NCBI RefSeq assembly: GCF_964194025.1
Contig: NC_134479.1
Span: forward strand, 15,624,001 to 15,688,000
Direction of reading: 5' to 3'
From: Convolutriloba macropyga
Taxonomy: Eukaryota
Length of the DNA stretch: 64,000 bases
Below the pieces are notes generated by a model that did no database searches, was not told the DNA's origin, and saw nothing but the letters and a program-made list of their open reading frames with translations. The translations under genes and the position numbers were made by a program. This document shows, piece after piece, positions 9,702-37,269 of the stretch. Positions within the stretch are counted from its first letter, which is position 1, and the number at the start of each line of letters is the position of its first letter.

Positions 9702-9788
9702 AGTAGTAGATGATACCGGCTAGGAGGACATACAGGGGGGGGGGACACTTGCAAAAGGATTTTCGCCCCACCGGGATTCGAACCCGGA
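9702..9788 (+). repeat. Left terminal inverted repeat of the Polinton
   Basis: Reverse complement of 35735-35818 apart from two substitutions and G-run length. Confidence 0.95.
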
Positions 9789-9833
9789 TCTAGTGCATGG
9801 GAAGCAGAAATCATACCACTGGACCAAAGGTGT
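9763..9833 (-). ncRNA. tRNA-like Pol III-type unit at the left end, pointing outward (CCC at anticodon position; not a canonical tRNA)
   Basis: Minus strand reads ACACCTT-TGGTCCAGTGG(A-box)-TATGATTTCTGC-TTCCCAT-GCACTAGAT-CCGGG-TTCGAAT-CCCGG(T-arm/B-box)-TGGGGC, then TTTT at 9756-9753. The acceptor stem pairs poorly. Confidence 0.6.
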
Positions 9834-12113: not shown

Positions 12114-13014
12114 ACAGTTAGACAAATTGTACACGACAGGCAGTGCTGCATTTGGTAGTATTGCTAATTTAAAGAAGGCTAGTGGCTATACTAGAAGCAA
12201 AATTGTTCGCTATCTTCAGTCAAAAGCCCCCTACACGAAATACAGACAATTCAGGAAAAGCTTCCCCCGACTGAAAGCTGTTGCATACAGAATAAACGAA
12301 ATCTGGTCTGTCGATGTTGCGTTTATGGATAAAGTTGCCCAACACAACAATGGCGTAAAATATTTGTTAGTGGCTGTGGATGTTTTATCGCGTTACTTAC
12401 AAGTTCAACCAATGAAGGTCTTTTATGCAAAAGATGATGTTGAAGCCTTCAAAAAAATGATCAAGAAGAAACAGCCAGAGAAAGTATAGACAGACAAGGG
12501 ATCAGAATTTAAAGGAGATTTCAAAAAGTTTTGTGAGAAGAAAGGAATTCATTTATATACAACAGAAAACGAAACCAAGTCGGCATTTGCAGAGAGGAAC
12601 ATTCGATCGCTTAAAAACATCATTTACAAATATTTGGAGGAAAAGTGGACTTGGACGTATATTAAAGATTTGCCCCAGTTTGTAAATACTATAAACGGTC
12701 GTGTCAACCGGGTTACCCAATTAGCACCTAATAAAATTTTCAAAAGACACGAACCATTTTTAATATCACTTGCTTCAGACAACAACAAATACAAACCAAA
12801 ATACGAAGAAGGAGACCTTGTTAGGATTGCAACGCTTTTCAGAAAAGCTTATAAACAAAACTACACAGACGAAGTTTTCACAGTACTACGATTGGCTACA
12901 ACAAGTCCACCCACATACAATCTCTTTGACGCGAACAACGTTGAAATCCTAGGGAAATTTTTTGAACCGGAATTGGCAAAAAATGACGTGTTGAAAACTG
13001 AAGAGGAGCAATGA
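11974..13014 (+). pseudogene. Retroviral-like (rve) integrase
   Basis: WSVDVAFM..KYLLVAVDVLSRY..KV*TDKGSEF..KSAFAERNIRSLK gives the DDE core. Premature TAG at 12487-12489 (probably a former TGG). True start codon uncertain; no chromodomain seen. Confidence 0.95.
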
Positions 13015-14221: not shown

Positions 14222-15512
14222 CATTGTTATTCCCACAGAGGCTACACACAGCTCACTCGACTTATTCGAAAAACCTCCTCTGCTGGTTACATTTGATCAA
14301 TCATTCGAGCAAAAAACGAACACTTTACTCACCCACTGGATCTTCGTTAGAGTTTGAAATAGTCGGTGACAGAAATAATTTCATCGACCTGCAGAAAATT
14401 TATCTGGAAATCAAATTTCGAGTTGTTCAAAGTAATGGAAACGATTTACGCTTCAACACGGGAGATGCCAACAATAGTGACTCACCACATTTGGTCAATA
14501 ACGCCTTACATTCGCTTTTTACTGATTGCTCAGCGTCAGCAAACGGTATTAAAATTTCTTTCGCCAATGGTCACTACGCACACAAGAGTTTCATTGAAAC
14601 AGAATTTTCTCATGGGTCGGATGCGAAAAAAACCTGGCTGATATGTCAGGGATATGAATATGAAGCAGACCCAACAGGTGTCCCAGCCGCTACAATTACA
14701 GCTCGACAAGTAACTGTGAGAAGATCAGCCCAAATCACAATGTATGGAAAAATTGCTACCAATTTTTTTTCATGCGAGACTATCTAGCGAGCGGAGTAAC
14801 TTTACGAATTTTTTTCCGACGATCACAGGATGATTTTACGATTGTAAGTGAAGACGGGGCTCAACACTATAAAATCAAAATTGATGAAGCAAATTTGTTC
14901 GTGCGAAAAATGACGGTCTCGGATAACGTGGTGGGCGCAATCGAGAAAACACTTCTCAAAACACCTGCAATGTATCGCTAAAATGAAGTTATTTCAAAAG
15001 CTTTTCTAGCAACAGCTGGGCAACAGAGCTGGAAACAAGAGGACATTTTCACTAAAGAACCCATTCGGAGATTGATAGTTGCCAAGTGCCGCAGTGATGC
15101 GTTCATCAGTACCAGTACGCTAAATCCATTTTCATATAGAAAGTTTGACTTAAATGAGATAATAAATTACCGTAATGGGTTCGCCACCGCTGGCACACCG
15201 ATGTCAACAACTGATAATAAACGACTATACTACAACTCAATGGCTGCACTAGCTTATGTAGAAAATGGTGACGGAATACCGCTCACTGACTTTCCCGAAC
15301 ACTATATAATGGTATTTGACCTTACCAGCACACAAGAGGCTACACATGATTTCATCCATCCTGAGTTAACAAACTCATCATCATCCGTGGAACTTAAATT
15401 CGGAGCAGCTTTACCGAACAACATTGAAATATTATTCTTGGAGGAAAAATGTTCAACAGTATACATCGATTCTGCGAGAAACGTTTCCAAAAACGCTCTT
15501 CCTATGATCTAA
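14211..15512 (+). pseudogene. Major capsid protein (double jelly roll, hexon-like)
   Basis: HSSLDLFEKPP..LEFEIVGDRNNFIDL..NNALHSLF..NGHYAHKSFIETEFS..ANLFVRK..NPFSY..VFDLT motifs. Frameshifts at ~14315 and ~14778, stop at 14979-14981. Confidence 0.9.
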
Positions 15513-15957
15513 TGGATGAAGATCGGATATTTAAGTTGATTCTACAATGCAAGCACCTAATTTTTAAATTCAACGGTGTATATGCAGCTAACAATTTCCC
15601 CTTAAACATGCCAACCAATTCATTTGCTATTGTTAACGCATCCCCAGCCTCCTCACCCGGATCTCATTGGATCGTTCTCGCAAAAAAATATGACTACTCA
15701 AAAACATACTTTGCCGACCCGCTGGCATTACCTCTTTATTCATATAAACACATAACAGACTGATTTCGACTGATAGCATGATAGTGGACCTTATGGAAGA
15801 CCGACGTGACTCAAACAAACCCCTGCAAAGTGCAAACTCTCAAATGTGTGGACTTTACTGTATTTATATTGCTCATTATGTTCTCAATGATAACTTTCCA
15901 TTCATTCCCGATATAAATGAAGTTCAGCTTTTGTCATTTGTTAAAAATGTGAAGTGA
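15512..15957 (+). pseudogene. Adenain-like (adenoviral-type) cysteine protease
   Basis: FNGVYAAN..IVNASPASSPGSHWIVL..YFADPL..LQSANSQMCGLYCIY contains the catalytic H, D, Q and C. Stop at 15761-15763 plus a frameshift. Confidence 0.92.
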
Positions 15958-17383
15958 ATATTCTAAAAGTTTCTTTATTTTGTCTGATGACTCATCAGAT
16001 CATGCAATACATTTGAGTATTTTGAATTAAATTCAGGCCCTGGATTAATAGACGGAAAGCTGGATAAACATTTTACAGCTTGTAAACAACTTCAAATTTT
16101 GTCTAGACAATGGAATGTTAGGTATGTAAATAACTAAGATTACAGCATCATGACGTTAACTCGGCTAGACATGAACAAACAAACAGATATCTCGCATCTG
16201 ATTGGTTGATTAAATCTGAGAAGTTTGTTCCGGGGACTTGAAAACCAATCATTGCTTTCTGCCCTACATCTTGAAATCAGTTCACAAAATATTCAGTTTT
16301 TGTTTACAGAATTCAGCTTTTCTCAAAATTCACCTAATCGGAACAACACATTCCCGTGTTTTCGAAATGCCACAAGTCAAGTGTGATATTTGCCAGCAAC
16401 TGCTTTCTGACAAAAGGAGCCCCAGGCGTCACCGAAAAAGCATCCACAAGATCTATCCACAAAGTAATTCATTTGAATGCGAGGAGTGTGGTTTCTCTAC
16501 AAAAAGTCTCTACGAACTAACAGGGCATATGACAGTACATCACGATGCGCCCAATCCCCGCTACTGTCTATATTGCAACAAATGCTTCCCTCGCGATGTT
16601 GATTATTTAGAGCACATGAACGGTGTTCACAGTCTACCAGCATGGAATATTGACTCGGATAACCTTCAACATTCGGGTATTTTGCCGACAGAACGAGCTT
16701 TTGGGGGCGCTCTAAAAACGTACGAAATTGCATTCGGGGCAAATGATCTGGGCTACTTCATGTCATGCATAAAAAACGACAAGAAATTGAAAACATTGTG
16801 CGATTGAGCGTTCAGCAACTTTCACAAAAAGTTCAATTCAGCTCAAAAATACAGTTGACAAAACCTCCAAAACATGATGATGAAATTTTTTCAAGTCAAC
16901 CAGATCGAATCTCAGTATATTTACAGTCAAAAATGGAACGTGTAGACTTTGCGGGTCTGTCAGACAAAAGCTTCCATAGCATGGTTGAGCAGATGCTTCT
17001 GTCGTTGAACAATTTTGCATCACACGGTAGTGGTTGCATCAGATTGAGAACATAGAAGTACGATTGGTAAAAAACAAACCAATAAGCGCATCTTCATATC
17101 TAGCGCTCCCGGGAACACTCTCTGGTATGTCGGCTTTGTTTAATATACGAAACAGAGAGGATAAACACTGTTTCCTCTACTGTTATACCGCAGCGTACCA
17201 TTTGAAGTATGGCCCCCGACTTGTTCCTATTGGTTCTTCATCACGAAGGATAACCAGCCCTGCTACATACGGACCAGGAAATCGAATTGCGAAACAGGCA
17301 AGTGGCGATTTCAAAATGCCAATGGGCTTTCATCAAATGCCAAGATTCGGGGCACTCAATGATGTCTGTGTCAACGTTTTTCG

Positions 17384-17565
17384 GTGAGAAAAAGTTAAAC
17401 TTTCAAACTCCTATGACCCCCTCCAGAAAAGAACAATTTTCAAACACTTATAACCCCATCCAGAAAAAAACAACTTTCAAACTCTTATACCCCCTCCAGA
17501 AAAAAATAAACTAGATCTAGACCTAAAAGTGTTAAAAACAATGATAACACAAAATTAATTTTTAG
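17384..17565 (+). other. Spliceosomal intron 1 of pPolB (182 bp, phase 2)
   Basis: CG|GTGAGA ... TTTTTAG|G. Removal joins VNVFR to YTESGPTPFRVSKK..LDLLLLSDGQMHHYVLI in frame. Contains three ~37-bp tandem repeats. Confidence 0.85.
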
Positions 17566-20066
17566 GTACACTGAGAGCGGGCCAACACCATTCAGAGTAT
17601 CAAAAAAAACAAACTGCGACTTTAATTTGGATCTTCTACTGCTTAGTGATGGTCAAATGCATCACTATGTCTTGATCCGAAATTTGCGTAGTTTTATACA
17701 CAGAGTCCGCGAGCGAGTCCAAGGACTGAAAACTATATTTGTCGAAACTGCTTTCACGTTTCTTCTTCAAAGGAGCGTCATGATAAAAATCTTGGCTTTT
17801 GTCTAGAAAACAAACCAGCAGTCGTATCTGGCTGTGGGAACAACCCGCAAAATGCAGAAACAAGAATCATAGAGCTTCAAAAGCCATGCAGCTACGCAAT
17901 GCTTTTTGTTGGGCAGGACGAGGTTGAGCCCTTTCATTTTGAATGCGAAAGTGGTCCTGACATCATGTCCAAGTTTGTAGAATCTCTCGAGCAAATAGCG
18001 AAGAAAATATATCAAGCGAAACAACGAAACAGGTATTTTCATGGTGAGGCGCCATATTCAAAGGAAGATGCAGACGATTGTTGGATATGTGAGGAAACTC
18101 TTGAAAACACAATAGAAAACCCAACTCTTTGGGATCACTGTCATTTTACAGGCCAATTTTTAGGATGGGCACACAACAGTTGTAACATCAATAGAAAGTT
18201 CTTAAACTACACACCGGTATTTGCTCACAACCTTTCGAATTACGATCTTCACCACGTAATTCTTGCTCTTCAAGGGAGCAATATGTGCAATACTATCTCA
18301 ATTATACCCAGTACAGATAAAAAATTCATAGCTGTTGAAATTGGTGTTCTAATCAAGATGCGTCCTGACAAAAATGGAGTCAATAAACCAGTGTATGAGC
18401 ACATAAGATTATTGGATTCCTTCCGATTCATGCCATCATCACTAGACACTCTCACTAAAAATCTACCACCAACCGAGTTCACCTTGCTCGAAGACTACTT
18501 CAAAGACTGGCCAGAATCATCTCTAAACACGCTCAAGCAAAAAAGCTTCTTCCCTTACAACTACATCGACAGCTTTCCAAAACTCGGAGAATCTGAACTA
18601 CCATCGAGAGAAAAGTAGACTAACAGCCTTCAACAGTACCAAATTAGTGTAACTGAGGATGAATACAAGCACGCTCTTACTGTTTTTGAAGCATTCAAAT
18701 GTAAAACAATTGGAGAGTACTACAATCTCTATTTGAAAACGGATGTCTTCCTCCTTGCTGCTGTCGTATTTTGCTTTCGCTAGGTATGCTACCAAACTTA
18801 TGGACTTGACTGTTGTCAATACTACACAGCTTCAAATCTTTCGGGGGACGCTAAGCTCAAAATTTGTCAGGCACCCCTTGAGCTTCTCACAGACAGGGAA
18901 CAGTTGCACATGGTTGAGGGTTTGATCAGGGGCGGAGTGAGTTCTATCTACAACAGGGGACTCTCAGTTGCCAACAACAAATATCTCCCGAATTTCAATC
19001 CAAAAGAATCTTCAACATTTATAGTCATGATTGACGCGAACAATCTTATGGTGGCATAATGGAAAAGTTCACGTTGCCTCTCAATGATTTTGAGTTCACA
19101 AACCAACAATGGGACTCTGATCTTGAGCCACAATTCATTCAGAAAGTACTGGAGACTTCTGACGATAGTGATGTTGGATACATTTTGGAAGTGGACTTGT
19201 CATACCCAGACGCACTTCATGACCTTCACTCTGATTTCCCCCTAGCTCCAGTGAAGCAGCAGGTTGAACGTGCTGGTTAGGCGATTATCAAGAAGAACTC
19301 TTAACTGATATGCAGATGAATGCCCCACCCTCGAGTAATAAGCTCATTCAAACTCTATTCCCCAAGAAGAACTATATTCTACATTACCAGACACTAAAAT
19401 TATATGTTCAATTAGGTATGAAGGTTGAAAAACTGCATCGTGCGCTAACGTTTAACCAATCAAAGTGGTTGGCGCCATACGTTCAACTCAACACGCAAAA
19501 ACGAAAGGAGGCAAAAAACAATTTTGAGGAAAATTTTTATAAACTGATGGTCAACAGCACCTTCGGAAAAACATTTGAGGGGACGAGGAATCGAATCAAG
19601 GTGAAATTAGGCCGTAGTGAAGATGAGGCTCTCAAGTGGACTTGCACTCCACAGCTGAAATCTTTCAAAATAATTGGTGAAGATCTGGCAACAATTAGCC
19701 TTAACCAAACTAAAATTCTGTGGGATAAACCAACAATCGTTGGTGCATGTATCCTGGATCTCTCCAAGAAGTTCATGTTTGACTTTCACTATAATACTAT
19801 GAAAAAGCATTTCAACTGCAAACTGTTATACTCAGACACAGACCCATTCGTTTACGAGATCAGATCTAATGAATTTTACGCCGAACTGAGACGAAAAACT
19901 GCTCTTAAAGATCTCTTCGACTTCTCCAACTTCCCCAGCGACCATGAGCTCCATGACCGTTGTAATGCCCGGGTTACACTAAAGTTCAAGGATGAGATGG
20001 GTGGTAAACTGATCTCGGAGTTTGTGGGCCTCAAACCAAAGCTATACTCAATCAAACTTGCGGATG

Positions 20067-20205
20067 GTGAGTATACATTTAAATATTTCTTTGGGAACAA
20101 GAAAACATTATTTCCTATACATGTAAAAATGCAGGCAAGACTGGTGAAAGCGTAAAAGATATTAGAAAGGTGTAAGAGGCTCAAAAACAAAAGTAGAATT
20201 TTCAG
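20067..20205 (+). other. Spliceosomal intron 2 of pPolB (139 bp, phase 1)
   Basis: G|GTGAGT ... TTTTCAG|GA. Removal joins GLKPKLYSIKLADG to SPKQSAKGV in frame with the 20256-20957 ORF. Confidence 0.88.
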
Positions 20206-21075
20206 GATCTCCTAAGCAGTCAGCCAAAGGTGTCACGAAGGATGCTCGCAGTAAGATGACTCATGAAATGTACAAGCAAGTGCTCAACGGTGGAGAAACA
20301 ATGAGACTAGTCAACACAAGAATTGCTTCTAGCAAACATCAGTTGATGACAGTTGTTTGTAACAAAAAATCGCTCTCTGGATATGACGATAAACGCTATA
20401 TTTTGGACGATAGGATCACTACACTACCGTACGGCCATCACGCTCTGCGAGAGGAAATGTTCATGCGGAAGATTCTTCATGATCCTGACTGGAGTTCAAG
20501 CGATGACGAGGAGACAAACGTTCACTTCGCCGAATCAACTATGGAGCAGAGTCCGCCGATTACTCAGCACAAACAGCTTTCAGAAACTTGGTCACCACCT
20601 GATCCAGGTTTTAACCAGCGTGAGTACAGTGAGGATGAGGATGATATTGTCAATTTTGCAAACCTTACTCAACAAGAGAGTGAGGGAGAGCTCGATAGGT
20701 GTTCTTTCATAGAAGACCATGCCATTGAATCAGGTTCGTCGCCTAGTCTTCTCGACCTAAGACCAGATTCCCCCATACATCTTTCTATCGATACTTCAGC
20801 ACAAAAGCAATCCACACACCGACCGCGACCATCAAAACGTAACAAAAATTGTGCAAAATGGAGGCTGGAGCTGATATCAGACGATGAATCTTTCAATATA
20901 GAAAGAATTAGGAAATGGAGAGTAGTGAAAATAGACTCAGATAGTGAAGAAAACTAAATTTGTAAAATTTACAGCTTACGTTTTGTGATTTGTTTCGTCT
21001 CTGCTTTATTTTTATAAAAGTATTAACCGTTTGTTGGATTTAAGAAAGCTTTTCAACTAGAGTCATAAAACAGTT

Positions 21076-24000
21076 CATAATATTAGTCTTTAAGGCTCCC
21101 ATATAATCGGTTGATCATTTATATCTAAGTCATTTTCATCCACAGTACCTTCAATCCATAGTATAAGTCTTTTAAAAGCTCCCATATAAGCAGTTGACCA
21201 ATTTATATCTAAGTCATTTTTGTCCTCAGTACCTTCAATCCATAGTATAAGTCCTTTAAAATCTCCTATATAAGCAGTTGATCAATTTATGTCTAGGTCA
21301 TTTTCATCCTCAGTACCTTCAATCCATAGTATAAGTCTTTTAAAAGCTCCCATATAAGCAGTTGATCAATTTATAACTAAGTCATTTTCATCCTCAGTAC
21401 CTTCAATCCATAGTATAAGTCTTTTAAAAGCTCCCATATAAGCAGTTGATCAATTAATGTCCAAGTCATTTTCATCCTCAGTACCTTCAATCCATAGTAT
21501 AAGTCTCTTAAAGCTCCCATATAAGCAGTTGATCAATTTATATCTAAGTCATTTTCATCCTCAGTACCTTCAATCCATAGTATAAACGTTTAAAGCCTCC
21601 CATATAAGCAGTTGATCAGTTTATATCTAAGTCATTCTCATCCCCAGTACCTTCAATTCATAGTATCAGTCTTTTAAAAGCTCCCATATAAGCAGATGAT
21701 CAATTTATATCTAAGTCAGTTTTGTCCTCAGTACCTTCAATCCATAGTATAAGTCTTTTAAAAGCTCCCATATAAGCAGTTGATCAATTAATGTCTAAGT
21801 CATTTTCATCCTCAGTACCTTCAATCCATAGTATAAGTCTCTTAAAGCTCCAATATAAGCAGTTGATCAATTTATATCTAAGTCATTCTCATCCTCAGTA
21901 CCTTCAATCCATAGTAAAAGTCTTTTAAAAGCTTCCATATAAGCAGTTGACCAGTTTATATCTAAGTCATTTTGTCCTCAGTACCTTCAATCCATAGTAT
22001 AAGTCTTTTAAAAGCTCCCATATAAGCAGTTGATCAATTTATGTCAAGGTCATTTTCATCCTCAGTACCTTCAATCCATAGTATAAGTCTTTTAAAAGCT
22101 CCCATATAAGCAGTTGATCAATTTATAACTAAGTCATTTTCATCCTCAGTATCTTCAATCCGTAGTATAAGTCTTTAAAGCCTCCCATATAAGCAGTTGA
22201 TCAATTTATATCTAAGTCATTTTCATCCCCAGTACCTTCAATCCATAGTATAAGTCTTTTAAAAGCTCCCATATAAGCAGGTGATCAATTTATATCTAAG
22301 TCAGTTTTGTCCTCAGTGCCTTCAATCCATAGTATAAGTCTTTTAAAAGCTCCCATATAAGCAGTTGATCAATTTTATGTCTAAGTCATTTTCATCCTCA
22401 GTACCTTCAATCCATAGTATAAGTCTCTTAAAGCTCCCATATAAGCATTTGATCAATTTATATCTAAGTCATTTTCATCCTCAGTACCTTCAATCCATAG
22501 TATAGGTCTTTAATGCCTCCCATATAAGCAGTTGATCAAATTATATCTAAGTCATTTTCATCCTCAGTACCTTCAATCCATAGTATAAGTCTTTTAAAAG
22601 CTCCCATATAAGCAGGTGATCAATTTATATCTAAGTGATTTTTGTCCTCAGTACCTTCAATCCATAGTATAAGTCTTTTAAAGCCCCCCACATAAGCAGT
22701 TGATCAATTTATATCTTAGTCACTTTTGTACTCAGTACCTTCAATCCATAGTATAAGTCTTTTAAAAGCTCCCATATAAGCAGGTGATCAATTTATATCT
22801 AAGTCAGTTTTGTCCTCAGTACCTTCAATCCATAGTCTAAGTCTTTTAAAAGCTCCCATGTAAGTAGTTGATCAATTAATGTCTAAATCATTTTCATCCT
22901 CAGTACCTTCAATCCATAGTATAAGTCTCTTAAAGCTCCCTTATAAGCAGTTGATCAATTTATATCTAAGTCATTTTCATTCTCAGTACCTTCAATCCAT
23001 AGTATAAGTCTTTAAAGCCTCCCATATAAGCAGTTGATCAATTTATATCTAAGTCATTTTCATCCTCAGTACCTTCAATCCATAGTATAAGTCTTTAAAG
23101 CCTCCCATATAAGCAGGTGATCAATTTATATCTAAGTCAGTTTTGTCCTCAGTACCTTCAATCCATAGTATAAGTCTTTTAAAAGCTCCCATGTAAGCAG
23201 TTCATCAATTAATGTCTAAATCATTTTCATCCTCAGTACCTTCAATCCATAGTATAAGTCTCTTAAAGCTCCCTTATAAGCAGTTGATCAATTTATATCT
23301 AAGTCATTTTCTTTCTCAGTACCTTCAATCCATAGTATAAGTCTTTAAAGCCTCCCATATAAGCAGGTGATCAATTTATATCTAAGTCAGTTTTGTCCTC
23401 AGTACCTTCAATCCATAGTATAAGTCTCTTAAAGCCTCCCATATAAGCAGTTGATCAATTTATATCCAAGTCATTTTTGTCCTCCGTATCTTCAATCCAC
23501 AGTATAAGTCTTTTAAAGCCTCCCACACAGGCAGTTGATCAATTTATATTCAAGTCATTTTTGTCCTCAGTACCTTCAATCCATAGTATAAGTCTTTTAA
23601 AGCCTCCCACACAAGCAGTTGATCAATTTATATCTAAGTCATTTTCATCCTCAGTACCTTCAATCCATAGTATACGTCTTTTCAAGCCCCCCACATAAGC
23701 AGTTGATCAACATATATCTAAGTCATTTTTGTCCTCAGTACCTTCAATCCATAGTATAAGTCTTTAAAGCCTCCCATATAAGCAGTTGATCAATTTATAT
23801 CTAAGTCATTTTCATCCCCACTACCTTCAATCCATAGTATAAGTCTTTTAAAAGCTCCCATATAAGCAGGTGATCAATTTATATCTAAGTCAGTTTTGTC
23901 CTCAGTAACTTCAATCCATAGTATAAGTCTTTTAAAAGCTCCCATATAAGCAGTTGATCAATTAATGTCTAAATCATTTTCATCCTCAGTACCTTCAATC

Positions 24001-27000
24001 CATAGTATAAGTCTTTTAAAGCTCCCATATAAGCAGTTGATCAATTTATATCTAAGTCATTTTCATCCTCAGTACCTTCAATCCATAGTATAAGTCTTCA
24101 AAGCCTCCCATATAAGCAGTTGATCAATTTCTATCTAAGTCATTTTCATCCTCAGTACCTTCAATCCATAGTATAAGTCTTTTAAAAGCTCCCATATAAG
24201 CAGGTGATCAATTTATATCTAAGTGATTTTTGTCCTCAGTACCTTCAATCCATAGTATAAGTCTTTTAAAGCCCCCCACATAAGCAGTTGATCAATTTAT
24301 ATCTTAGTCATTTTTGTACTCAGTACCTTCAATCCATAGTATAAGTCTTTTAAAAGCTCCCATATAAGCAGGTGATCAATTTATATCTTAGTCAGTTTTG
24401 TCCTCAGTACCTTCAATCCATAGTATAAGTCTTTTAAAAGCTCCCATATAAGCAGTTGATCAATTAATGTCTAAGTCATTTTCATCCTCAGTACCTTCAA
24501 TCCATAGTATAAGTCTCTTAAAGCTCCCATATAAGCAGTTGATCAATTTATATTTAAGTCATTTTCATTCTCAGTACCTTCACTCCATAGTATAAGTCTT
24601 TAAAGCCTCCCATATAAGCAGTTGATCAATTTATATCTAAGTCATTTTCATCGTCAGTACCTTCAATCCATAGTATAAGTCTTTAAAGCCTCCCATATAA
24701 GCAGTTGATCAATTTATATCTAAGTCATTTTCATCCTCAGTACCTTCAATCCATAGTATAAGTCTTTTAAAAGATCCCATATAAGCAGTTGATTAATTTA
24801 TATCTAAGTCAGTTTTGTCCTCAGTACCTTCAATCCATAGTATAAGTCTCTTAAAGCCTCCCATATAAGCAGTTGATCAATTTATATCCAAGTCATTTTT
24901 GTCCTCAGTATCTTCAATCCATAGTATAAGCCTTTTAAAGCCTCCCACACAGGCAGTTGATCAATTTATATCTTAGTCATTTTTGTACTCAGTACCTTCA
25001 ATCCATAGTATAAGTCCTTTAAAAGCTCCCATATAAGCAGGTGATCAATTTATATCTAAGTCATTTTCATCCTCAGTACCTTCAATCCATAGTATACGTC
25101 TTTTCAAGCCCCCCATATAAGCAGTTGATCAAAATATATCTAAGTCATTTTTGTCCTCAGTACCTTCAATCCATAGTATAAGTCTTTAAAGCCTCCCATA
25201 TAAGCAGGTGATCAATTTATATCTAAGTCAGTTTTGTCCTCAGTACCTTCAATCCATAGTATAAGTCTCTTAAAGCCTCCCATATAAGCAGTTGATCAAT
25301 TTATATCCAAGTCATTTTTGTCCTCAGTATCTTCAATCCATAGTATAAGTCTTTTAAAGCCTCCCACACAGGCAGTTGATCAATTTATATCTTAGTCATT
25401 TTTGTACTCAGTACCTTCAATCCATAGTATAAGTCCTTTAAAAGCTCCCATATAAGCAGGTGATCAATTTATATCTAAGTCATTTTCATCCTCAGTACCT
25501 TCAATCCATAGTATACGCCTTTTCAAGCCCCCCATATAAGCAGTTGATCAATATATATCTAAGTCATTTTTGTCCTCAGTACCTTCAATCCATAGTATAA
25601 GTCTTTAAAGCCTCCCATATAAGCAGTTGATCAATTTATATCTAAGTCATTTTCATCCCCAGTACCTTCAATCCATAGTATAAGTCTTTTAAAAGCTCCC
25701 ATATAAGCAGGTGATCAATTTATATCTAAGTCAGCTTTGTCCTCAGTACCTTCAATCCATAGTATAAGTCTTTTAAAATCTCCCATATAAGCAGTTGATC
25801 AATTAATGTCTAAGTCATTTTCACCCTCAGCACCTTCAATCCATAGTATAAGTCTCTTAAAGCTCCCATATAAGCAGTTGATTAATTTATATCTAAGTCA
25901 TTTTCATCCTCAGTACCTTCAATCCATAGTATAAGTCTTTAAAGCCTCCCATATAAGCAGTTGATCAATTAATGTCCAAGTCATTTTCATCCTCAGTACC
26001 TTCAATCCATAGTATAAGTCTCTTAAAGCTCCCATATAAGCAGTTGATCAATTTATATCTAAGTCATTTTCATCCTCAGTACCTTCAATCCATAGTATAA
26101 ACGTTTAAAGCCTCCCATATAAGCAGTTGATCAGTTTATATCTAAGTCATTCTCATCCCCAGTACCTTCAATTCATAGTATCAGTCTTTTAAAAGCTCCC
26201 ATATAAGCAGATGATCAATTTATATCTAAGTCAGTTTTGTCCTCAGTACCTTCAATCCATAGTATAAGTCTTTTAAAAGCTCCCATATAAGCAGTTGATC
26301 AATTAATGTCTAAGTCATTTTCATCCTCAGTACCTTCAATCCATAGTATAAGTCTCTTAAAGCTCCAATATAAGCAGTTGATCAATTTATATCTAAGTCA
26401 TTCTCATCCTCAGTACCTTCAATCCATAGTAAAAGTCTTTTAAAAGCTTCCATATAAGCAGTTGACCAGTTTATATCTAAGTCATTTTGTCCTCAGTACC
26501 TTCAATCCATAGTATAAGTCTTTTAAAAGCTCCCATATAAGCAGTTGATCAATTTATGTCAAGGTCATTTTCATCCTCAGTACCTTCAATCCATAGTATA
26601 AGTCTTTTAAAAGCTCCCATATAAGCAGTTGATCAATTTATAACTAAGTCATTTTCATCCTCAGTATCTTCAATCCGTAGTATAAGTCTTTAAAGCCTCC
26701 CATATAAGCAGTTGATCAATTTATATCTAAGTCATTTTCATCCCCAGTACCTTCAATCCATAGTATAAGTCTTTTAAAAGCTCCCATATAAGCAGGTGAT
26801 CAATTTATATCTAAGTCAGTTTTGTCCTCAGTGCCTTCAATCCATAGTATAAGTCTTTTAAAAGCTCCCATATAAGCAGTTGATCAATTTTATGTCTAAG
26901 TCATTTTCATCCTCAGTACCTTCAATCCATAGTATAAGTCTCTTAAAGCTCCCATATAAGCATTTGATCAATTTATATCTAAGTCATTTTCATCCTCAGT

Positions 27001-30000
27001 ACCTTCAATCCATAGTATAGGTCTTTAATGCCTCCCATATAAGCAGTTGATCAAATTATATCTAAGTCATTTTCATCCTCAGTACCTTCAATCCATAGTA
27101 TAAGTCTTTTAAAAGCTCCCATATAAGCAGGTGATCAATTTATATCTAAGTGATTTTTGTCCTCAGTACCTTCAATCCATAGTATAAGTCTTTTAAAGCC
27201 CCCCACATAAGCAGTTGATCAATTTATATCTTAGTCACTTTTGTACTCAGTACCTTCAATCCATAGTATAAGTCTTTTAAAAGCTCCCATATAAGCAGGT
27301 GATCAATTTATATCTAAGTCAGTTTTGTCCTCAGTACCTTCAATCCATAGTCTAAGTCTTTTAAAAGCTCCCATGTAAGTAGTTGATCAATTAATGTCTA
27401 AATCATTTTCATCCTCAGTACCTTCAATCCATAGTATAAGTCTCTTAAAGCTCCCTTATAAGCAGTTGATCAATTTATATCTAAGTCATTTTCATTCTCA
27501 GTACCTTCAATCCATAGTATAAGTCTTTAAAGCCTCCCATATAAGCAGTTGATCAATTTATATCTAAGTCATTTTCATCCTCAGTACCTTCAATCCATAG
27601 TATAAGTCTTTAAAGCCTCCCATATAAGCAGGTGATCAATTTATATCTAAGTCAGTTTTGTCCTCAGTACCTTCAATCCATAGTATAAGTCTTTTAAAAG
27701 CTCCCATGTAAGCAGTTCATCAATTAATGTCTAAATCATTTTCATCCTCAGTACCTTCAATCCATAGTATAAGTCTCTTAAAGCTCCCTTATAAGCAGTT
27801 GATCAATTTATATCTAAGTCATTTTCTTTCTCAGTACCTTCAATCCATAGTATAAGTCTTTAAAGCCTCCCATATAAGCAGGTGATCAATTTATATCTAA
27901 GTCAGTTTTGTCCTCAGTACCTTCAATCCATAGTATAAGTCTCTTAAAGCCTCCCATATAAGCAGTTGATCAATTTATATCCAAGTCATTTTTGTCCTCC
28001 GTATCTTCAATCCACAGTATAAGTCTTTTAAAGCCTCCCACACAGGCAGTTGATCAATTTATATTCAAGTCATTTTTGTCCTCAGTACCTTCAATCCATA
28101 GTATAAGTCTTTTAAAGCCTCCCACACAAGCAGTTGATCAATTTATATCTAAGTCATTTTCATCCTCAGTACCTTCAATCCATAGTATACGTCTTTTCAA
28201 GCCCCCCACATAAGCAGTTGATCAACATATATCTAAGTCATTTTTGTCCTCAGTACCTTCAATCCATAGTATAAGTCTTTAAAGCCTCCCATATAAGCAG
28301 TTGATCAATTTATATCTAAGTCATTTTCATCCCCACTACCTTCAATCCATAGTATAAGTCTTTTAAAAGCTCCCATATAAGCAGGTGATCAATTTATATC
28401 TAAGTCAGTTTTGTCCTCAGTAACTTCAATCCATAGTATAAGTCTTTTAAAAGCTCCCATATAAGCAGTTGATCAATTAATGTCTAAATCATTTTCATCC
28501 TCAGTACCTTCAATCCATAGTATAAGTCTTTTAAAGCTCCCATATAAGCAGTTGATCAATTTATATCTAAGTCATTTTCATCCTCAGTACCTTCAATCCA
28601 TAGTATAAGTCTTCAAAGCCTCCCATATAAGCAGTTGATCAATTTCTATCTAAGTCATTTTCATCCTCAGTACCTTCAATCCATAGTATAAGTCTTTTAA
28701 AAGCTCCCATATAAGCAGGTGATCAATTTATATCTAAGTGATTTTTGTCCTCAGTACCTTCAATCCATAGTATAAGTCTTTTAAAGCCCCCCACATAAGC
28801 AGTTGATCAATTTATATCTTAGTCATTTTTGTACTCAGTACCTTCAATCCATAGTATAAGTCTTTTAAAAGCTCCCATATAAGCAGGTGATCAATTTATA
28901 TCTTAGTCAGTTTTGTCCTCAGTACCTTCAATCCATAGTATAAGTCTTTTAAAAGCTCCCATATAAGCAGTTGATCAATTAATGTCTAAGTCATTTTCAT
29001 CCTCAGTACCTTCAATCCATAGTATAAGTCTCTTAAAGCTCCCATATAAGCAGTTGATCAATTTATATTTAAGTCATTTTCATTCTCAGTACCTTCACTC
29101 CATAGTATAAGTCTTTAAAGCCTCCCATATAAGCAGTTGATCAATTTATATCTAAGTCATTTTCATCGTCAGTACCTTCAATCCATAGTATAAGTCTTTA
29201 AAGCCTCCCATATAAGCAGTTGATCAATTTATATCTAAGTCATTTTCATCCTCAGTACCTTCAATCCATAGTATAAGTCTTTTAAAAGATCCCATATAAG
29301 CAGTTGATTAATTTATCTCTAAGTCAGTTTTGTCCTCAGTACCTTCAATCCATAGTATAAGTCTCTTAAAGCCTCCCATATAAGCAGTTGATCAATTTAT
29401 ATCCAAGTCATTTTTGTCCTCAGTATCTTCAATCCATAGTATAAGCCTTTTAAAGCCTCCCACACAGGCAGTTGATCAATTTATATCTTAGTCATTTTTG
29501 TACTCAGTACCTTCAATCCATAGTATAAGTCCTTTAAAAGCTCCCATATAAGCAGGTGATCAATTTATATCTAAGTCATTTTCATCCTCAGTACCTTCAA
29601 TCCATAGTATACGTCTTTTCAAGCCCCCCATATAAGCAGTTGATCAAAATATATCTAAGTCATTTTTGTCCTCAGTACCTTCAATCCATAGTATAAGTCT
29701 TTAAAGCCTCCCATATAAGCAGGTGATCAATTTATATCTAAGTCAGTTTTGTCCTCAGTACCTTCAATCCATAGTATAAGTCTCTTAAAGCCTCCCATAT
29801 AAGCAGTTGATCAATTTATATCCAAGTCATTTTTGTCCTCAGTATCTTCAATCCATAGTATAAGTCTTTTAAAGCCTCCCACACAGGCAGTTGATCAATT
29901 TATATCTTAGTCATTTTTGTACTCAGTACCTTCAATCCATAGTATAAGTCCTTTAAAAGCTCCCATATAAGCAGGTGATCAATTTATATCTAAGTCATTT

Positions 30001-32801
30001 TCATCCTCAGTACCTTCAATCCATAGTATACGCCTTTTCAAGCCCCCCATATAAGCAGTTGATCAATATATATCTAAGTCATTTTTGTCCTCAGTACCTT
30101 CAATCCATAGTATAAGTCTTTAAAGCCTCCCATATAAGCAGTTGATCAATTTATATCTAAGTCATTTTCATCCCCAGTACCTTCAATCCATAGTATAAGT
30201 CTTTTAAAAGCTCCCATATAAGCAGGTGATCAATTTATATCTAAGTCAGCTTTGTCCTCAGTACCTTCAATCCATAGTATAAGTCTTTTAAAATCTCCCA
30301 TATAAGCAGTTGATCAATTAATGTCTAAGTCATTTTCACCCTCAGCACCTTCAATCCATAGTATAAGTCTCTTAAAGCTCCCATATAAGCAGTTGATTAA
30401 TTTATATCTAAGTCATTTTCATCCTCAGTACCTTCAATCCATAGTATAAGTCTTTAAAGCCTCCCATATAAGCAGTTGATCAATTTATATCAAAGTCATT
30501 TTCATCCTCAGTACCTTCAATCCATAGTATAAGTCTTTTAAAAGCTCCCATATAAGCAGGTGATCAATTTATATCTAAGTAATTTTTGTCCTCAGTACCT
30601 TCAATCCATAGTATAAGTCTTTTAAAGCCCCCCACATAAGCAGTTCATCAATTTATATCTTAGTCATTTTTGTACTCAGTACCTTCAATCCATAGTATAA
30701 GTCTTTTAAAAGCTCCCATATAAGCAGGTGATCAATTTATATCGAAGTCAGTTTTGTCCTCAGTACCTTCAATCCATAGTATAAGTCTTTTAAAAGCTCC
30801 CATATAAGCAGTTGATCAATTAATGTCTAAGTCATTTTCATCCTCAGTACCTTCAATCCATAGTATAGGTCTCTTAAAGCTCCCATATAAGCAGTTGATC
30901 AATTTATATCTAAGTCATTTTCATTCTCAGTACCTTCACTCCATAGTATAAGTCTTTAAAGCCTCCCATATAAGCAGTTGATCAATTTATATCTAAGTCA
31001 TTTTCATCGTCAGTACCTTCAATCCATAGTATAAGTCTTTTAAAAGCTCCCATATTAGCAGTTGATCAATTTATATCTAAGTCAGTTTTGTCCTCAGTAC
31101 CTTCAATCCATAGTATAAGTCTCTTAAAGCCTCCCATATAAGCAGTTGATCAATTTATATCCAAGTCATTTTTGTCCTCAGTATCTTCAATCCATAGTAT
31201 AAGTCTTTTAAAGCCTCCCACACAGGCAGTTGATCAATTTATATTCAAGTCATTTTTGTCCTCAGTACCTTCAATCCATAGTATAAGTCTTTTAAAGCCT
31301 CCCACACAAGCAGTTGATCAATTTACATCTAAGTCATTTTCATCCTCAGTACCTTCAATCCATAGTATACGTCTTTTCATGCCCCCCACATAAGCAGTTG
31401 ATCAATATATATCTAAGTCATTTTTGTCCTCAGTACCTTCAATCCATAGTATAAGTCTCTTAAAGCCTCCCATATAAGCAGTTGATCAATTTATATCTAA
31501 GTCATTTTTGTCCTCAGTACCTTCAATCCATAGTATAAGTCTTTTAAAGCCTCCCACACAAGCAGTTGATCAATTTATATTCAAGTCATTTTTGTCCTCA
31601 GTACCTTCAATCCATAGTATAAGTCTTTTAAAGTCTCCCACACAAGCAGTTGATCAATTTATATTCAAGTCATTTTTGTCCTCAGTACCTTCAATCCATA
31701 GTATAAGTCTTTTAAAGCCTCCCATATAAGCAGTTGATCAATTTATGTCTAAGTCATTTTTGTCCTCAGTATCTTCAATCCATAGTATAAGTCTTTTAAA
31801 GCCTCCCACACAAGCAGTTGATCAATTTATATTCAAGTCATTTTTGTCCTCAGTACCTTCAATTCATATTATAAGTCTTTTAAAGCCTCCCACACAAGCA
31901 GTTGATCAATTTATATCTAAGTCATTTTCATCCTAAGTACCTTCAATCCATAGTATAAGTCTTTTAAAAGCTCCCATATAAGCAGTTGATCAATTTATAT
32001 TCAAGTCATTTTTGTCCTCAGTACCTTCAATCCATAGTAGAAGCCTTTTAAAGCCTCCCACACAAGCAGTTGATCAATTTATATTCAAGTCATTTTTGTC
32101 CTCAGTACCTTCAATCCATAGTATAAGTCTTTTAAAAGCTCCCATATAAGCAGTTGATTAATTTATATCTAAGTCAATTTCATAATCAGTACCTTCAATC
32201 CATAGTATAAGTCTTTTAAAAGCTCCCATACAAGCAGTTGATCAATTTACATCTAAGTCATTTTCATCCTCAGTACCTTCAATCCATAGTATAAGTCTTT
32301 TAAAGCCCCCCACACAAGCAGTTGATCAATTTATGTCTAAGTCATTTTCATCCTCAGTATCTTCAATCCATAGAATAAGTCTTTTAAAAGCCCCCCACAT
32401 AAGCAATTGATCAATTTATATCTACGTCATTTTCATCCTCAGTACCTTCAATCCATAGTATAAGTCTTTTAAAGCCCCCCACATAAGCAGTTGATCAATT
32501 TATATCTAAGTCAATTTCATACTCAGTACCTTCAATCCATAGTATAAGTCTTTTAAAAGCTCCCATACAAGCAGTTGATCAATTTATATCTAAGTCATTT
32601 TTGTCCTCAGTACCTTCAATCCATAGTATAAGTCTTTTAAAGCCTCCCACACAGGCAGTTGATCAATTTATATCTTAGTCATTTTTGTACTCAGTACCTT
32701 CAATCCATAGTATAAGTCCTTTAAAAGCTCCCATATAAGCAGTTGATCAATTTATATCTAAGTCATTTTCATCCTCAGTACCTTCAATCCATAGTATAAG
32801 T
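21076..32801. repeat. Satellite array inside the Polinton, unit 83-84 bp, ~140 copies, 11.7 kb
   Basis: Consensus AGTACCTTCAATCCATAGTATAAGTCTTTTAAAAGCTCCCATATAAGCAGTTGATCAATTTATATCTAAGTCATTTTCATCCTC; includes a near-exact 4515-bp higher-order duplication. Confidence 0.98.
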
Positions 32802-33477
32802 GTTGAAAAAGCTTCCGCACTATCAGATGGAAATGAAAAAGTAGCCAGTGTTCAATGCCAAACCAAAACTCCCCTTTGTCTCGAAAAAATAGGAACATGT
32901 TCATAGTTACCTCTGTAGATCATCTGTGTCGATTGTAGCAATCTGTCATAATCTACCCTACAACTGATCTAAGTGTCTAAGTGAACTCAGTGAGTGTTTG
33001 TGAATGGTGGTGCGTGTTAAAAGTTTGTGAACTGCTGCCGTCTAATTTTCGCAATAGGGTTTCTCTAAACCAGCAAGGTCCGCCTCTCAATCATTGGAGT
33101 TGCCAAAGTTAAGAAGGCAAGGAGTTTACTGGCGTCAAGCGAGTACAGTTCCTGCTACTCTTCAGACTGTTTATCTCAAGACTTGGTACTCCAGACAAGA
33201 TATTAAAATTAATTCCCAATATATATAGAATTTATCAACAAACAAAATATAAATGTGAGCATCATCTGAAGCTGTTGATGAAATGTCACGAGACTAAGAG
33301 GAGAGTTTTGAAATAAAAAACCAATAAAAACCGGTCGAAAGGGTGCAAATTGTAAAAAGACTAACCGAGTAATTCCTTTTTCTCAACTATGTTCCAAGCT
33401 CTGCACTCATTTTTACTCTCCACGTCGCTCTCCACTTTGCACTCCACTTTGTTCGGTGACGTGTGCCATAAAATTGT

Positions 33478-34516
33478 CACCAGTACTCTTTCTATGTACA
33501 AATTAAAACTCGCTTAGGTAACCACAAGGTAGCTTAGGATCCAAAACACAAGTTATTTTTCACCAATACTCTTGATATGTACAAGTTAAAACTCGCTTAG
33601 GTATCCAGCAGGTAGCTTAGGATCCAATACACAAGTTATTTTTCACCAATACTCTTGATATGTACAAGTTAAAACTCGCTTAGGTATCCAGCAGGTAGCT
33701 TAGGATCCAACACACAAGTTATTTTTCACCAATACTCTTGATATGTACAAGTTAAAACTCGCCTAGGTATCCAGCAGGTAGCTTAGGATCCAATACATAA
33801 GTTATTTTTCACCAATACTCTTAATATGTACAAGTTAAGACTCCTTAGGTAACCCCAAGGTAGCTTAGGATTCAATACACAAGTTATTTTTCATCAATAC
33901 TCTTGATATGTACAAGTAAAACCCCTTAGGTATCCAGCAGGTAGCTTAGGAACCAATACACAAGTTATTTTTCACCAATATTCTTGTTATGTACAAGTTA
34001 AAACTCGCTTAGGTATCCAGCAGGTAGCTTAGGATCCAATACACAAGTTATTTTTCACCAATATTCTTGATATGTACAAGTTAAAACTCCTTAGGTAACC
34101 CCAAGGTAGCTTAGGATCCAATACACAATTTATTTTTCACCAATACTCTTCATATGTACAAGTTAAAACTGGCTTAGTTAACCCCTAGGTAGCTTAGGAT
34201 CCAATACACAAGATATTTTTCACCAATACTCTTGATATGTACAAGTTAAAACTCGCTTGGGTAACCCCAAGGTAGCTTAGGATCCAATACACAAATTATT
34301 TTTCACCAATACTCTTCATATGTACAAGTTAAAACTGGCTTAGTTAACCCCTAGGTAGCTTAGGATCCAATACACAAATTATTTTTCACAAATACTCTTG
34401 ATATGTACAAGTTGAAACTCGCTTAGGTAACCCCAAGGTAGCTTAGGATAAAATACACAAGTTATTTTTCATCAAAACTCTTGATATGTACAAGTTAAAA
34501 CTTGCTTATCTAACCA
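33478..34516. repeat. Second internal tandem array, unit ~83 bp, ~12.5 copies
   Basis: Consensus CACCAATACTCTTGATATGTACAAGTTAAAACTCGCTTAGGTATCCAGCAGGTAGCTTAGGATCCAATACACAAGTTATTTTT; anchors at 33561 and 33644. Confidence 0.95.
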
Positions 34517-34517
34517 G

Positions 34518-35221
34518 CTAAGTTCGTTTAGGCTTTCCTCGCTTTTTCCTGCTTTTCTTAACATTTGGCATCGACAATGGTGCCAAAGCAGTTCTAGCTG
34601 GGAGTGGAGTCGAGGGAGATCTTTGTGTATCGTGGTGGATGTCATCGTTACTGTAGACAACTTCGTGATTGGCATAGACAAACTCAGTTTCAATCTGAAC
34701 TACTTCTGAAACCGAGGGAACAAGTCTGCATAGGAACTCGTTCACTGGCTCTTCAAATAGCATTGGATTGTTGGCCAACTCTCGCTTAATCCGTAATTTC
34801 AACGGAATTTGCACAGTCTCAGCCCGTCTGTCAACTGGCGATGGGACGCAGACGTAGCAATCACAGGGATTCAAATCTATGACGCCACGGTTTTTACAGT
34901 GTAGCGGTCGTACCACTGAAATACATGAGAACGTTTATATTTGTTGTTAACTGACCGTTATTTGATCGCAAAGAACCGGTCCAAGCCAGATATTTCACTG
35001 ATAATTTAACAACAATAAGGGGCACAAGCAATGACGCTAATAAGTATTTTACACTAATAACAGATTCAAACGATAACGCGGATCCAGATCATCCGCTGGG
35101 TAAGCGGCCCTAATTCAGAACACAAAGAATGAAACGGGTATTTACCATGCACAGGGTGAAATGAAGCTCTCTGTTTTCCGGTTCTGAAGTCCATTAGAGA
35201 AGAACTCTCGATCTTCATCAT
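34518..35221 (-). CDS. Two-exon orphan Polinton gene (~157 aa) with CxCxxC motif and basic NLS-like tail
   Basis: Exon 1 35221-35146 (MMKIESS..HPVH), intron 35145-34916 (GTAAAT..TTTCAG, phase 1 matches), exon 2 34915-34518 (..HCKNRG..PCDCYVC..KKSRKKRGKPKRT). Confidence 0.6.
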
Positions 35222-35689
35222 ATTAATTAAGAATATGACCACCACTTTCGTAGAAACTGGAAATCTGTTATGACAAAAACAAAATCCTTGCAACTAGAGC
35301 GGATAGTAACTGTACATAAATGATACGAAGCGGAAAAACTCGACCAAATTCAGTTTGATTACAAATTGTCTAGACCAATCTCTGAATCAATTGACGCGTT
35401 TATCCGAACCTGCTAGTCTACAAGCTAAAATTTGGTACAATTTGTGTTTCGGTGTTTCTAGACGTCTTAAAACTCCGAAGTTGGAGTGATGAAACACGCG
35501 CACTTTTAATTATCTCGAAATTAGTCTGGAATAAAAACATAAACAACTAACCACGCTAAGACGTCTGGATAGAGTTACAACCTAAGCTTGAGCGATAACA
35601 AAAGCGTTTCATCTTGTAAAGTATTCCGCTGTAGCGGCTACATGAGCGTTCTATACTGTAAAGTTCCATTCTAAATGTTTTGATAAGCA

Positions 35690-35759
35690 GTCACTTTAGC
35701 TCAGTGTTTCAAGAGCTGCTCAATAAGCGAAGGGTCCGGGTTCGAATCCCGGTGGGGCA
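35690..35759 (+). ncRNA. tRNA-like Pol III-type unit at the right end, pointing outward
   Basis: TAGCTCAGTG (A-box-like; GCTC/GAGC D-stem), shortened anticodon region, CCGGG-TTCGAAT-CCCGG T-arm/B-box, then TTTT at 35767-35770. Confidence 0.55.
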
Positions 35760-35818
35760 AAAATCCTTTTGCAAGTGTCCCCCCCTGTATGTCCCCCTAG
35801 CCGGTATCATCTACTACT
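35735..35818 (-). repeat. Right terminal inverted repeat of the Polinton
   Basis: Reverse complement of 9702-9788. Confidence 0.95.
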
Positions 35819-37269
35819 CCTGTGGGACATATGAATCAATCACAACCGAACGTGAGTTTAGTTATTTAAAAAAACATTTGTTTTTTCTCTTTCGGCCTGA
35901 TGTAATCTCTGCGAGCATTTTTGTTGCGATGGTTACATTCAATATTAAAACATGGAAACATTGCTGAGTGCATTGTTGAGCAATATCCATTAGGAAAGCA
36001 TCATTACGTTTCTCAATTCTTAATACGGTCCAGTAAAAAAAATTCTATATTTTGATACGCCCGCTTTTTTCACAAGGACCATGTCAAACAAATTGCCGTC
36101 AATTGACGAGGTAAAATATCATACAATATCAATAGAGTAGATATTAGAAGACTACTGACATGATGTTTATCAATTGCATTTGAAAATTTTCAGAAAATGA
36201 TCATTATCCGGGGTGAGGTGGTAGAAAAAGGACTTGAATTTTATTGCCGGAGTCGGCCGTCCTCCCAGACTATTTCGAATCAGTCTTGATATTAGGAATA
36301 ACAAGAACTTAGAGATGATCATATAATAACATTATTCGAGAGATGATGATCATACAAAAACTAACTCCTGGTGTATATGATTTTTGGTAACCATACATGT
36401 TCATGTGTGATTTTATGATTTCCTATTAATCAGCATTCTATTGGATCATATAAGATTTTCAGGTAATCCTAAAAGGATCATGCTGGCCATGTAAGCATAG
36501 TACAATTTTTCGTGAAAAAACTTTAGCTCGGTTCATGAAAAGACTTTTCCTCGACTTTAAATAGGAAGATCGACTATATAATTTTAGCCAGCTCCCAAAG
36601 GCGGCCCTCCCAAATAGACATTTAAAGTCTTTTTTCATAAGTGGAGACCTAAATCTAGAAAGGAAATACGTTATGAATTATGACATCATCAACGATCCTT
36701 GTCTGGCTACAAAGAAATGTCAACCCGAATTGATATATGTTTGTTTAAATTATTAATTGTTGTTACTTCACGTGTAAATTAGATTATACAAAGTATAAAA
36801 CGACACTTTATGTACATCAATTAATTGAATCTTCTTCTAATTGAATATTCTTGTTTATTAAAAGCAATGACACAAAGTACAAGTTGCCCTTAAGCTCAGC
36901 AGCTGCTCTGAAAGTTTCCTCTGATTTCTCCCGAAGTTTGTTTTCAACTGAATGGAGAATTTCTTGCGAGGTTTTCTCGTTCAACTCGACAGGGCAGCTC
37001 AGACAGGAATAAATTTCGAATTTGTCACAAATACTGAAACACAATAACTGGTAAATAAAATATTTGCATTGAAATTAATTGCATTAAAAATAGGCTGATG
37101 AAGTTAGGGTATGTTTAACTTTACGGAGTTACAGTAAACTCATGATAGGGTAAAATTAACCCAGGTCGAGCTGTCCAAACCGAAACGACCTCAGATCAGA
37201 CCATCTTTTTGTGCACGCCTGCGTATCGTGCGCTCGAATTACATTATTTGGAAAAGTCATCTCTTGACA

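Follow-up and report, generated by a model that had tools for sequence, protein, structure and literature searches.

The question raised by this locus is why two tandem arrays of nearly equal period should lie side by side, between convergent genes, inside a single mobile element. The locus is a 64,000-nucleotide stretch of the Convolutriloba macropyga genome (RefSeq assembly GCF_964194025.1, contig NC_134479.1, positions 15,624,001 to 15,688,000), here called the window and numbered from its first letter; the element, host to both arrays, is a decayed Polinton, probably of Group 1, at 9702-35818. The arrays, A and B, follow its protein-primed DNA polymerase (PolB) gene and precede a variable right arm. 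On balance, the answer favored here is that they are family-wide non-coding junctions where lineages exchanged the polymerase side and the right arm, that they likely persist as recombination platforms, and that their period is likely kept for in-register pairing. The description is firm; the adaptive part of the reading is likely but unproven.

Array A (21076-32813, plus strand) is non-coding, with a period of 84 bp and 140.3 copies by Tandem Repeats Finder. It starts 118 bp past the PolB stop codon (20955-20957), in agreement with the distance of ~120 bp given in an initial sequence-only reading of this stretch. Array B (33477-34516, plus strand) has a period of 83 bp and 12.6 copies, with units of 81-83 bp (mode 83). 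The near-equal periods pointed out in that reading were thus recovered by the program, with the qualification that A's is mixed in the window copy: 139 units were cut, 90 of them 84 bp long, 46 of 83 bp, and three of 85 bp. Within A is a near-exact tandem duplication of 4515 bp, or 54 units (plus strand, approximate ends 21431-30485), in which 4540 nt match with at most one mismatch at an offset of 4515; near-exact internal runs in siblings' arrays reach at most 1.5 kb. The duplication is either a recent expansion or an assembly error. Unless it is the latter, the near identity of the two duplicates within a copy that has otherwise decayed indicates that very long arrays of the window's type probably lengthened once the element had inserted. 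Among 43 complete A arrays copy number ranges from 2.2 to 140, with a median of 26, the window's array being the longest. The counts cluster near 19-26 and 38-45 units, which may be chance.

Sibling copies are named here by locus: Jnnn denotes a pair of neighboring loci, Lnnn with Lnnn+1, read in the orientation of the element; a K, M, N, or O name refers to one locus of that number, turned in the same way; and W is the window copy. The spacer between the arrays (32814-33476) is 663 bp long, and was described earlier as unique and of about 680 bp. It has no second copy within the window, but there are 144 candidates for it in the genome, 40 of which were scored, at 87-100%. Its core (32895-33267) is ~90% conserved over four polymerase clades. 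Just before B (33410-33456) is a cluster of GCTCTCC-like sequences, at 4-9 per 300 bp against a background of 0.3; it is present in all seven copies inspected (window, J029, K062, N134, N137, L186, and L187), even those without the spacer core. The core also carries intron-like signals (GTGAGT, CTAAT...AG) at 32990-33073, nearly invariant over 53 copies. A spliced joint of the spacer was not found in four contig sets of unknown kind, a result with no bearing on expression.

The sequence-only reading asked whether both arrays recur at this position in other family members, and they do. The order A, spacer, B was present in 20 of 20 siblings picked by spacer (20 fetched of 39 other scored loci), with PolB directly before A in 18, and A directly followed PolB in 19 of 20 siblings picked independently by PolB end (20 of 40 listed). 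In this second set, spacer and B came within 10 kb in 14 cases, A ran beyond 9 kb in four, one sequence ended in the spacer, and one was cut inside PolB. Among further PolB-lineage loci, A was found in five of six (one truncated) and a different array, A2, in four of four. None of the fetched siblings was an intact family member lacking arrays. Fifteen distinct extra loci (16 fetches, mostly chosen from unit matches or odd arrangements) all proved to be in spacer, PolB, or arm context. Units outside Polintons, also raised as a possibility in the sequence-only reading, were looked for: no free-standing A or B units outside such elements were found among the candidates scored, 40 of 327 for A and 39 of 408 for B. 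Within that scope, a captured host satellite is rejected as an explanation.

Since A, B, and spacer also occur in contigs of a run from a different study, an artefact of the present assembly is excluded as the source of the units. Pieces of all three are in runs X6-X8 too, whose labels name other organisms; the shares are small and of unknown make-up, and are no evidence of host range. No relatives were found in viral_contigs, and two distant metagenome relatives lack arrays, one of them perhaps not reaching beyond PolB.

Other unit types occupy the same sites. Arrays A2 and C and the B variants were located by position, not by period. In a fourth PolB clade, A2, with units of 83-85 bp, takes the place of A (10 of 10 loci, then all four of those mentioned above), with the same spacer core and B. 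Two A2-lineage elements have an 84-bp array, C, linked to B via a 77-bp hybrid unit, and several arms keep their own diverged B-like units beside them. L186 and L187 (about 900-2000) have an A-like unit, A3 (67% to A); after its array, where the spacer core would normally come, there is a second acidic stretch of PDPGF type that resembles the PolB tail. Same-strand homology links B, A2, and C (z 2-8; identities 55-62%), A and A3 are clearly related (z 5-9), and A3 and B weakly so (z 2-2.5). A and B had been taken to be unrelated, and compared alone in single-pair alignment they show no significant similarity (mean z 0.8), but A compared jointly with B, A2, and C gives z of 0.4-4.5, with the same register in seven of eight draws, p ≤ 0.03 in six of eight, and |z| ≤ 1.3 on the reverse strand. 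Together with the links via A3, this indicates distant homology: A and B are probably distant paralogues, and these alignments suggest that the matching period is likely conserved by descent.

The length of the units is better kept than their sequence. The modal lengths of seven unit types are 81-84 bp, with differences of 0-3 bp at Jukes-Cantor distances of 0.36-0.78, and types differing by 30-50% are still 81-85 bp long. From the spacer indel rate (variance 84 per unit distance), by a rough extrapolation, differences of about 7 bp would be expected; the unit-to-unit variance is 12 per unit distance, about sevenfold lower. Periods in related lineages are thus not randomly scattered, which would have counted against the sequence-only reading: other units of 81-85 bp stand at the same sites. 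Of 60 non-family arrays in the fetched DNA, only one has a period of 82-86 bp.

Exchange of modules at these arrays can be seen in trees of the 32 elements in which PolB end, spacer, and arm are all available (K059, J011, and J015, each missing one part, were left out). PolB falls into three clades with good support and the spacer tree has little depth; the distribution of arms agrees with neither. Monophyly of arm groups, which were named from arm clustering after the trees had been seen, is rejected by approximately unbiased (AU) tests on the PolB tree (arm3, p 3e-6; arm6, 2e-93; arm2, 1e-4) and on the spacer tree (arm3, 3e-52; arm6, 2e-4; arm2, 7e-53; arm7, 3e-72). Fifty-eight of 75 spacer pairs at least 97.5% identical have different arms, and A, spacer, and B stay 84-97% alike between elements with PolB ends up to 30% apart and DNA-dissimilar arms.

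At B, the switch points themselves can be seen. J025 has eleven clade-III-type B units, and its last B unit switches mid-unit to the form found beside arm9 in J015, with a clade-III 5' half and an arm9-type 3' half; J029 and J037 have the same kind of switch inside the last B unit, for arm3. Standard B is joined near-register to array C in N137 and N139, and to arm-specific B variants in K060, K061, J033, and K069. At A, K058 compared with K062 and K065 has an arm 99%, a spacer 97%, and a PolB 79.5% alike, and the exchange therefore lies across A; polymerase side and spacer are uncoupled across this array in siblings. The chimeric elements J025 and J029 have perfect 6-bp target-site duplications (TSDs). 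Their left end is purely of type 2, while the right one combines a type-2 tip with a type-1 inner part, and their arm-on-clade-III forms recur at further loci, L183 and J037. Recombinants were thus mobile after forming. The TSDs disagree in J037 and N134, which may reflect later chromosomal crossovers or assembly joins.

What is exchanged at B is the right arm. The window's arm (34517-35730) is of a type with a single occurrence in the genome search. In siblings too the arms begin where B ends, and 64 arms fall into 27 DNA-unrelated types, most of which carry a minus-strand open reading frame (ORF). The window's (34518-34934, minus strand; 138 codons stop to stop) combines a Cys motif with an acidic middle and a basic tail, and belongs to one large group that shares these features at 20-31% identity across arm types; other arm ORFs are coiled-coil-like or have a HEAT fragment. 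B had been said to abut the stop of this gene. It does end 1 bp before it, but this is peculiar to the window copy: the ORF stops about 20 residues before its homologues do, so the contact is a feature of that copy, and in siblings the two are 28-665 bp apart. In arm type 7, a HEAT-repeat fragment (L022:2999-3292, minus strand; PF13513, 32.5 bits), presumably importin-like by eye, is probably captured host sequence to judge by this match. Apart from it no Pfam family was found above cut-off in the arm proteins, and an Atlas search was uninformative. The LxCxE motif is found in none of 30 arm ORFs tested. We infer that arm genes may be fast-evolving host-interaction genes, in which case their exchange would be favored.

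Such exchange could proceed as follows. Co-replicating elements, or chromosomal copies, would cross over or switch template within A or B, the matched period allowing diverged arrays to pair over several units, and arms of distant lineages would in this way be joined to a currently spreading core. Units of the spreading core would then overwrite most of the array, leaving arm-specific units at its edge only. The outermost 40-90 bp of the new end would be matched to the left end, much as adenovirus ends are repaired by matching to the other end (a literature search on adenovirus end repair found no direct paper), and the recombinant would integrate and spread. Unequal exchange in the same arrays would alter copy number (2-140) and homogenize the units. 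Recombinants could have originated either during replication, between copies whose ends were then repaired, or through conversion of one chromosomal copy by another. In a stronger version, possible if doubtful, the arrays would form a dedicated cassette-exchange system: the period, not the sequence, would be under selection, diverged lineages would pair in register and trade at least 27 anti-host arms, and end-matching repair would make recombinants mobile at once.

Several points weigh against arrays maintained as platforms for exchange. The adaptive value of such a platform, and any benefit of exchange to the element, are inferred. Polintons do well without such arrays: they are absent from all of 16 more distant Group-1 loci, in 10 kb from PolB onward, and from all 40 PF03175-type loci (of 77 matches) in the 10 kb examined. 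For the expected unit-length differences, the basis of the extrapolation is a set of 42 windows that are 11% diverged. Monophyly of PolB clade I is not rejected on the spacer tree (AU p 0.22), so the case for exchange across A depends on the A2 lineage and on contrasts between pairs of elements. Nor are the arrays the sole exchange sites: over the integrase region J019 matches clade III at 96% and the window copy at 71-82%, so that the left part is mosaic as well. B-to-A fusions in L181 and J023 are on 5-bp microhomology or no homology, not in register. Finally, SIM-like motifs are enriched at p < 0.05 in just three of 30 arm ORFs.

Some of these points would suit a neutral origin. The arrays could be a by-product of slippage or unequal exchange during strand-displacement replication, with crossovers falling there because they are the longest shared homology beside an unalignable arm, and with the period inherited unselected. 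Copy number from 2.2 to 140, mosaicism elsewhere in the elements, array-less sister lineages, and the lack of conservation of palindrome, fold, and frame are all in keeping with this. Against it, unit length is held at 81-85 bp through 30-50% divergence, with a variance some sevenfold below the spacer's, and no array-less intact family member was found. This explanation is rather unlikely.

The sequence-only reading inferred that these could be phased protein-binding or nucleosome-positioning arrays, possibly bound by the element's own zinc fingers. Spelled out, an 84-bp unit, equal to 8 helical turns or half a nucleosome repeat, would bind a host or element protein and insulate, enhance, or package the convergent genes, with recombination secondary. 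The conserved period would suit this, as would a T-run and an AAG(T)-like motif similarly placed in all seven unit types and the presence of 165-170-bp host satellites in the window. A repeat near the adenovirus right end has been reported, in the parts of that paper covered, to affect replication and neighboring gene output (PMC9706605). The palindromes proposed as cores do exist, TTGATCAA in A and TGTACA and GGATCC in B, but at chance level: 82% of shuffled units have a 6-bp palindrome, 49-50% have two, and 35-37% have an 8-bp one. They are not specially conserved either, 40% and 20% of rotations being equally so, and none common to different types was seen in an alignment of the seven. Palindromes as functional cores are therefore rejected. 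The suggested 8 turns per unit find no significant signal in AA/TT/TA steps (p 0.30-0.85 for A, 0.07-0.54 for B); the ~10.5-bp phasing of these steps that marks nucleosome-positioning or bent satellites is thus not significant in either array. Unit types differ at up to half of their bases, and K054 has just two A units.

The same reading drew a parallel to the baculovirus hr regions and the Epstein-Barr virus oriP repeats. These are units with conserved palindromes that serve as origins and enhancers of circular genomes, hrs being also recombination-prone. They resemble A and B in being repeated non-coding units; palindromes here are at chance level and none is common to the unit types. An hr- or oriP-like origin role is unlikely here, because elements whose polymerase is protein-primed begin replication at their ends. 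With chance-level palindromes, no significant 8-turn signal, and copy numbers of 2-140, the proposed binding or origin mechanism is without support here, and phased binding or chromatin arrays are an unlikely explanation.

At the RNA level, no structured RNA was detected in the units: folding z-scores run from -2.6 to +0.3, mostly above -2, and the only Rfam matches are to the tRNA-like end. One spacer window folds at z of about -3.2, but at -1.6 on a wider cut. A stem-loop terminator in the units, of the kind found in the PeSL cassettes of T4-type phages, is rejected on the folding scores and the lack of an Rfam match.

The arrays could also serve as adjustable stuffer, padding a 14-kb gene set to the length packaged in a capsid, a role compatible with that of recombination platform. 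Elements minus their arrays measure 13.7-14.9 kb in 13 of 14 cases, and 18 of 25 whole elements, the window's included, are 16.1-18.5 kb long; intact vertebrate Mavericks average 16.9 kb in the part of the study covered (PMC8097293). Against this, five of the 25 are 19.8-26 kb long and two are under 15.5 kb, two arrays and a fixed period are left unexplained, and none of six elements of array-less sister lineages gave paired ends from which to take a length. As the main explanation this is decidedly unlikely. That the arrays are a coding relic, 84 bp being 28 codons, derived from an exon of leucine-rich-repeat type whose frame was later lost, is very improbable: one frame of A and A3 does resemble a 28-residue leucine-rich unit by eye and is open in 20% of 1665 units (54-66% in two elements), and L186 and L187 have the second acidic PolB-tail-like stretch after the array, but open units are not concentrated at array ends, pN/pS of 0.95-1.16 gives no sign of purifying selection on the leucine-rich-like frame, there is no codon-position bias and no frame beats column shuffles (best p 0.06-0.21), and units of B, A3, and many of A2 are 83 or 85 bp long, so that a coding repeat is rejected for now.

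Non-coding junctions of this kind can be compared with several known systems. Mavericks/Polintons have a variable accessory region beside the core, according to the parts covered of Barreat and Katzourakis (2021; PMC8097293). The animal elements described there share with this family the (AGT)2//(ACT)2 ends, a 6-bp TSD, pPolB, integrase, protease, and a size near 17 kb. Those parts describe no internal arrays or exchange junction; in the present family the accessory arm is bounded by two arrays, in which its switch points lie. Beta adintoviruses are reported to have Group-1 Polinton PolB, module transfer, and "Oncoid" genes, in the portion covered of Starrett et al. (2021; PMC8502044). They are like this family in a PolB that scores weakly on PF03175, in the movement of modules between lineages, and in accessory proteins that are small, acidic, and Cys-bearing. 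Trees are the basis on which that portion deduces transfer, and it names no junction element. The arm ORFs here are, by contrast, downstream of PolB on the opposite strand, and none of the 30 tested has LxCxE.

The PeSL cassettes of T4-type phages are likewise repeated non-coding elements beside variable genes with modular shuffling by recombination, as far as covered in Arbiol et al. (2010; PMC2839356), and here too module boundaries lie inside a repeat. PeSLs are described there as dispersed single promoter-terminator cassettes in bacteriophages, unlike the long fixed-period tandem arrays of this animal element. Fowl adenovirus TR-2, from the parts covered of PMC9706605, is also a tandem repeat with varying copy number, located at a gene 3' end close to the right terminus of a linear, protein-primed viral genome; it is a single array with a 135-bp unit in 4-13 copies, and arm exchange is not described in those parts. 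In the literature searched, internal arrays or array-borne arm exchange in Polintons are not described; the founding papers of 2006-2007, Repbase entries, and supplements were outside this coverage and may show such repeats.

On how Polintons trade accessory genes, papers report variable regions and the transfer of modules without naming a junction. In this family the junction can be seen as a DNA element, with switch points readable to within one repeat unit, and hundreds of copies in one genome put exchange rates, breakpoint density, and end repair within reach of direct measurement. It is unusual for repeats to stay constant in length when half of their sequence identity is lost, and this offers a clean test of pairing-register, chromatin, and neutral models. 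The arm library, for its part, is a ready set of candidate host-interaction genes.

Larger rearrangements also involve the arrays. In L181:2009-9995 an A-spacer-B block stands four times in tandem, the B-to-A joints being identical and on 5-bp microhomology, and J023, J041, J045, L182, and L188 have partial duplications resembling it. In L180:1-8860, the right end of a second family member adjoins a long B array of another copy, and in L176 with L184 a head-to-head fusion joins the A array of one copy to the PolB of another. Chromosomal rearrangement, too, may be driven by the arrays.

The window element has AGT-type terminal inverted repeats, a TSD, and PolB, rve, and cysteine protease genes, as expected of a Maverick/Polinton. 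The left inverted repeat (9702-9789, plus strand) starts AGTAGTAG and the right one (35731-35818, minus strand) finishes CTACTACT at 35818, with 88 bp in common at 94%. The flanking TSDs, CATGTG (9696-9701) and CCTGTG (35819-35824), agree at five of six positions; in siblings they are perfect 6-bp duplications in 12 of 14 elements, then in six of 10 further ones. A tRNA-Gly(CCC)-like sequence is in the left subterminal region (9763-9832, minus strand) and a weak tRNA-like one in the right (35690-35759, plus strand; Rfam tRNA, E 0.35, below cut-off), with a 5' half unlike the left one's. Both face outward from the element. Such sequences occur in the type-1 ends of many siblings, type-2 left ends being without them, and could possibly be Pol III promoters.

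The rve integrase gene (11938-13014, plus strand; PF00665, E 5e-4, below cut-off) is interrupted by a stop, and an adenovirus-type protease fragment (15428-15763, plus strand; PF00770) scores 21.4 bits against a cut-off of 21.3. The PolB region (16220-20957, plus strand) is in pieces, with stops and frameshifts; it encodes, in order, C2H2 fingers (Pfam zf-C2H2 match at 16220-16804), an endonuclease-VII-like part, the PolB core, and an acidic tail. Its score on PF03175 is weak (27.2 bits) and the family is not among the top PF03175 loci in the genome; with the endonuclease-VII-like part, this would fit the Group-1 class. Two short GT-AG intron-like stretches are visible by eye at about 20067-20215, where homologous proteins diverge or end. 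The nearest named homologue of a PolB piece, at 69%, is labelled as from the acoel Convolutriloba macropyga. For packaging ATPase and jelly-roll capsid, Pfam gave nothing for the fragments scanned, and there is a Walker-A-like stretch near 10500 by eye only.

The genome is very rich in Polintons, with 3892 candidates for PF03175 and 5181 for a Group-1 PolB piece, several lineages of each. The window also has host tandem repeats at 49-1366 (128 bp), 5050-6382 (165-170 bp), and 53200-53506 (154 bp), the second of which becomes an inverted arm at about 6340, beside a gap of 200 N.

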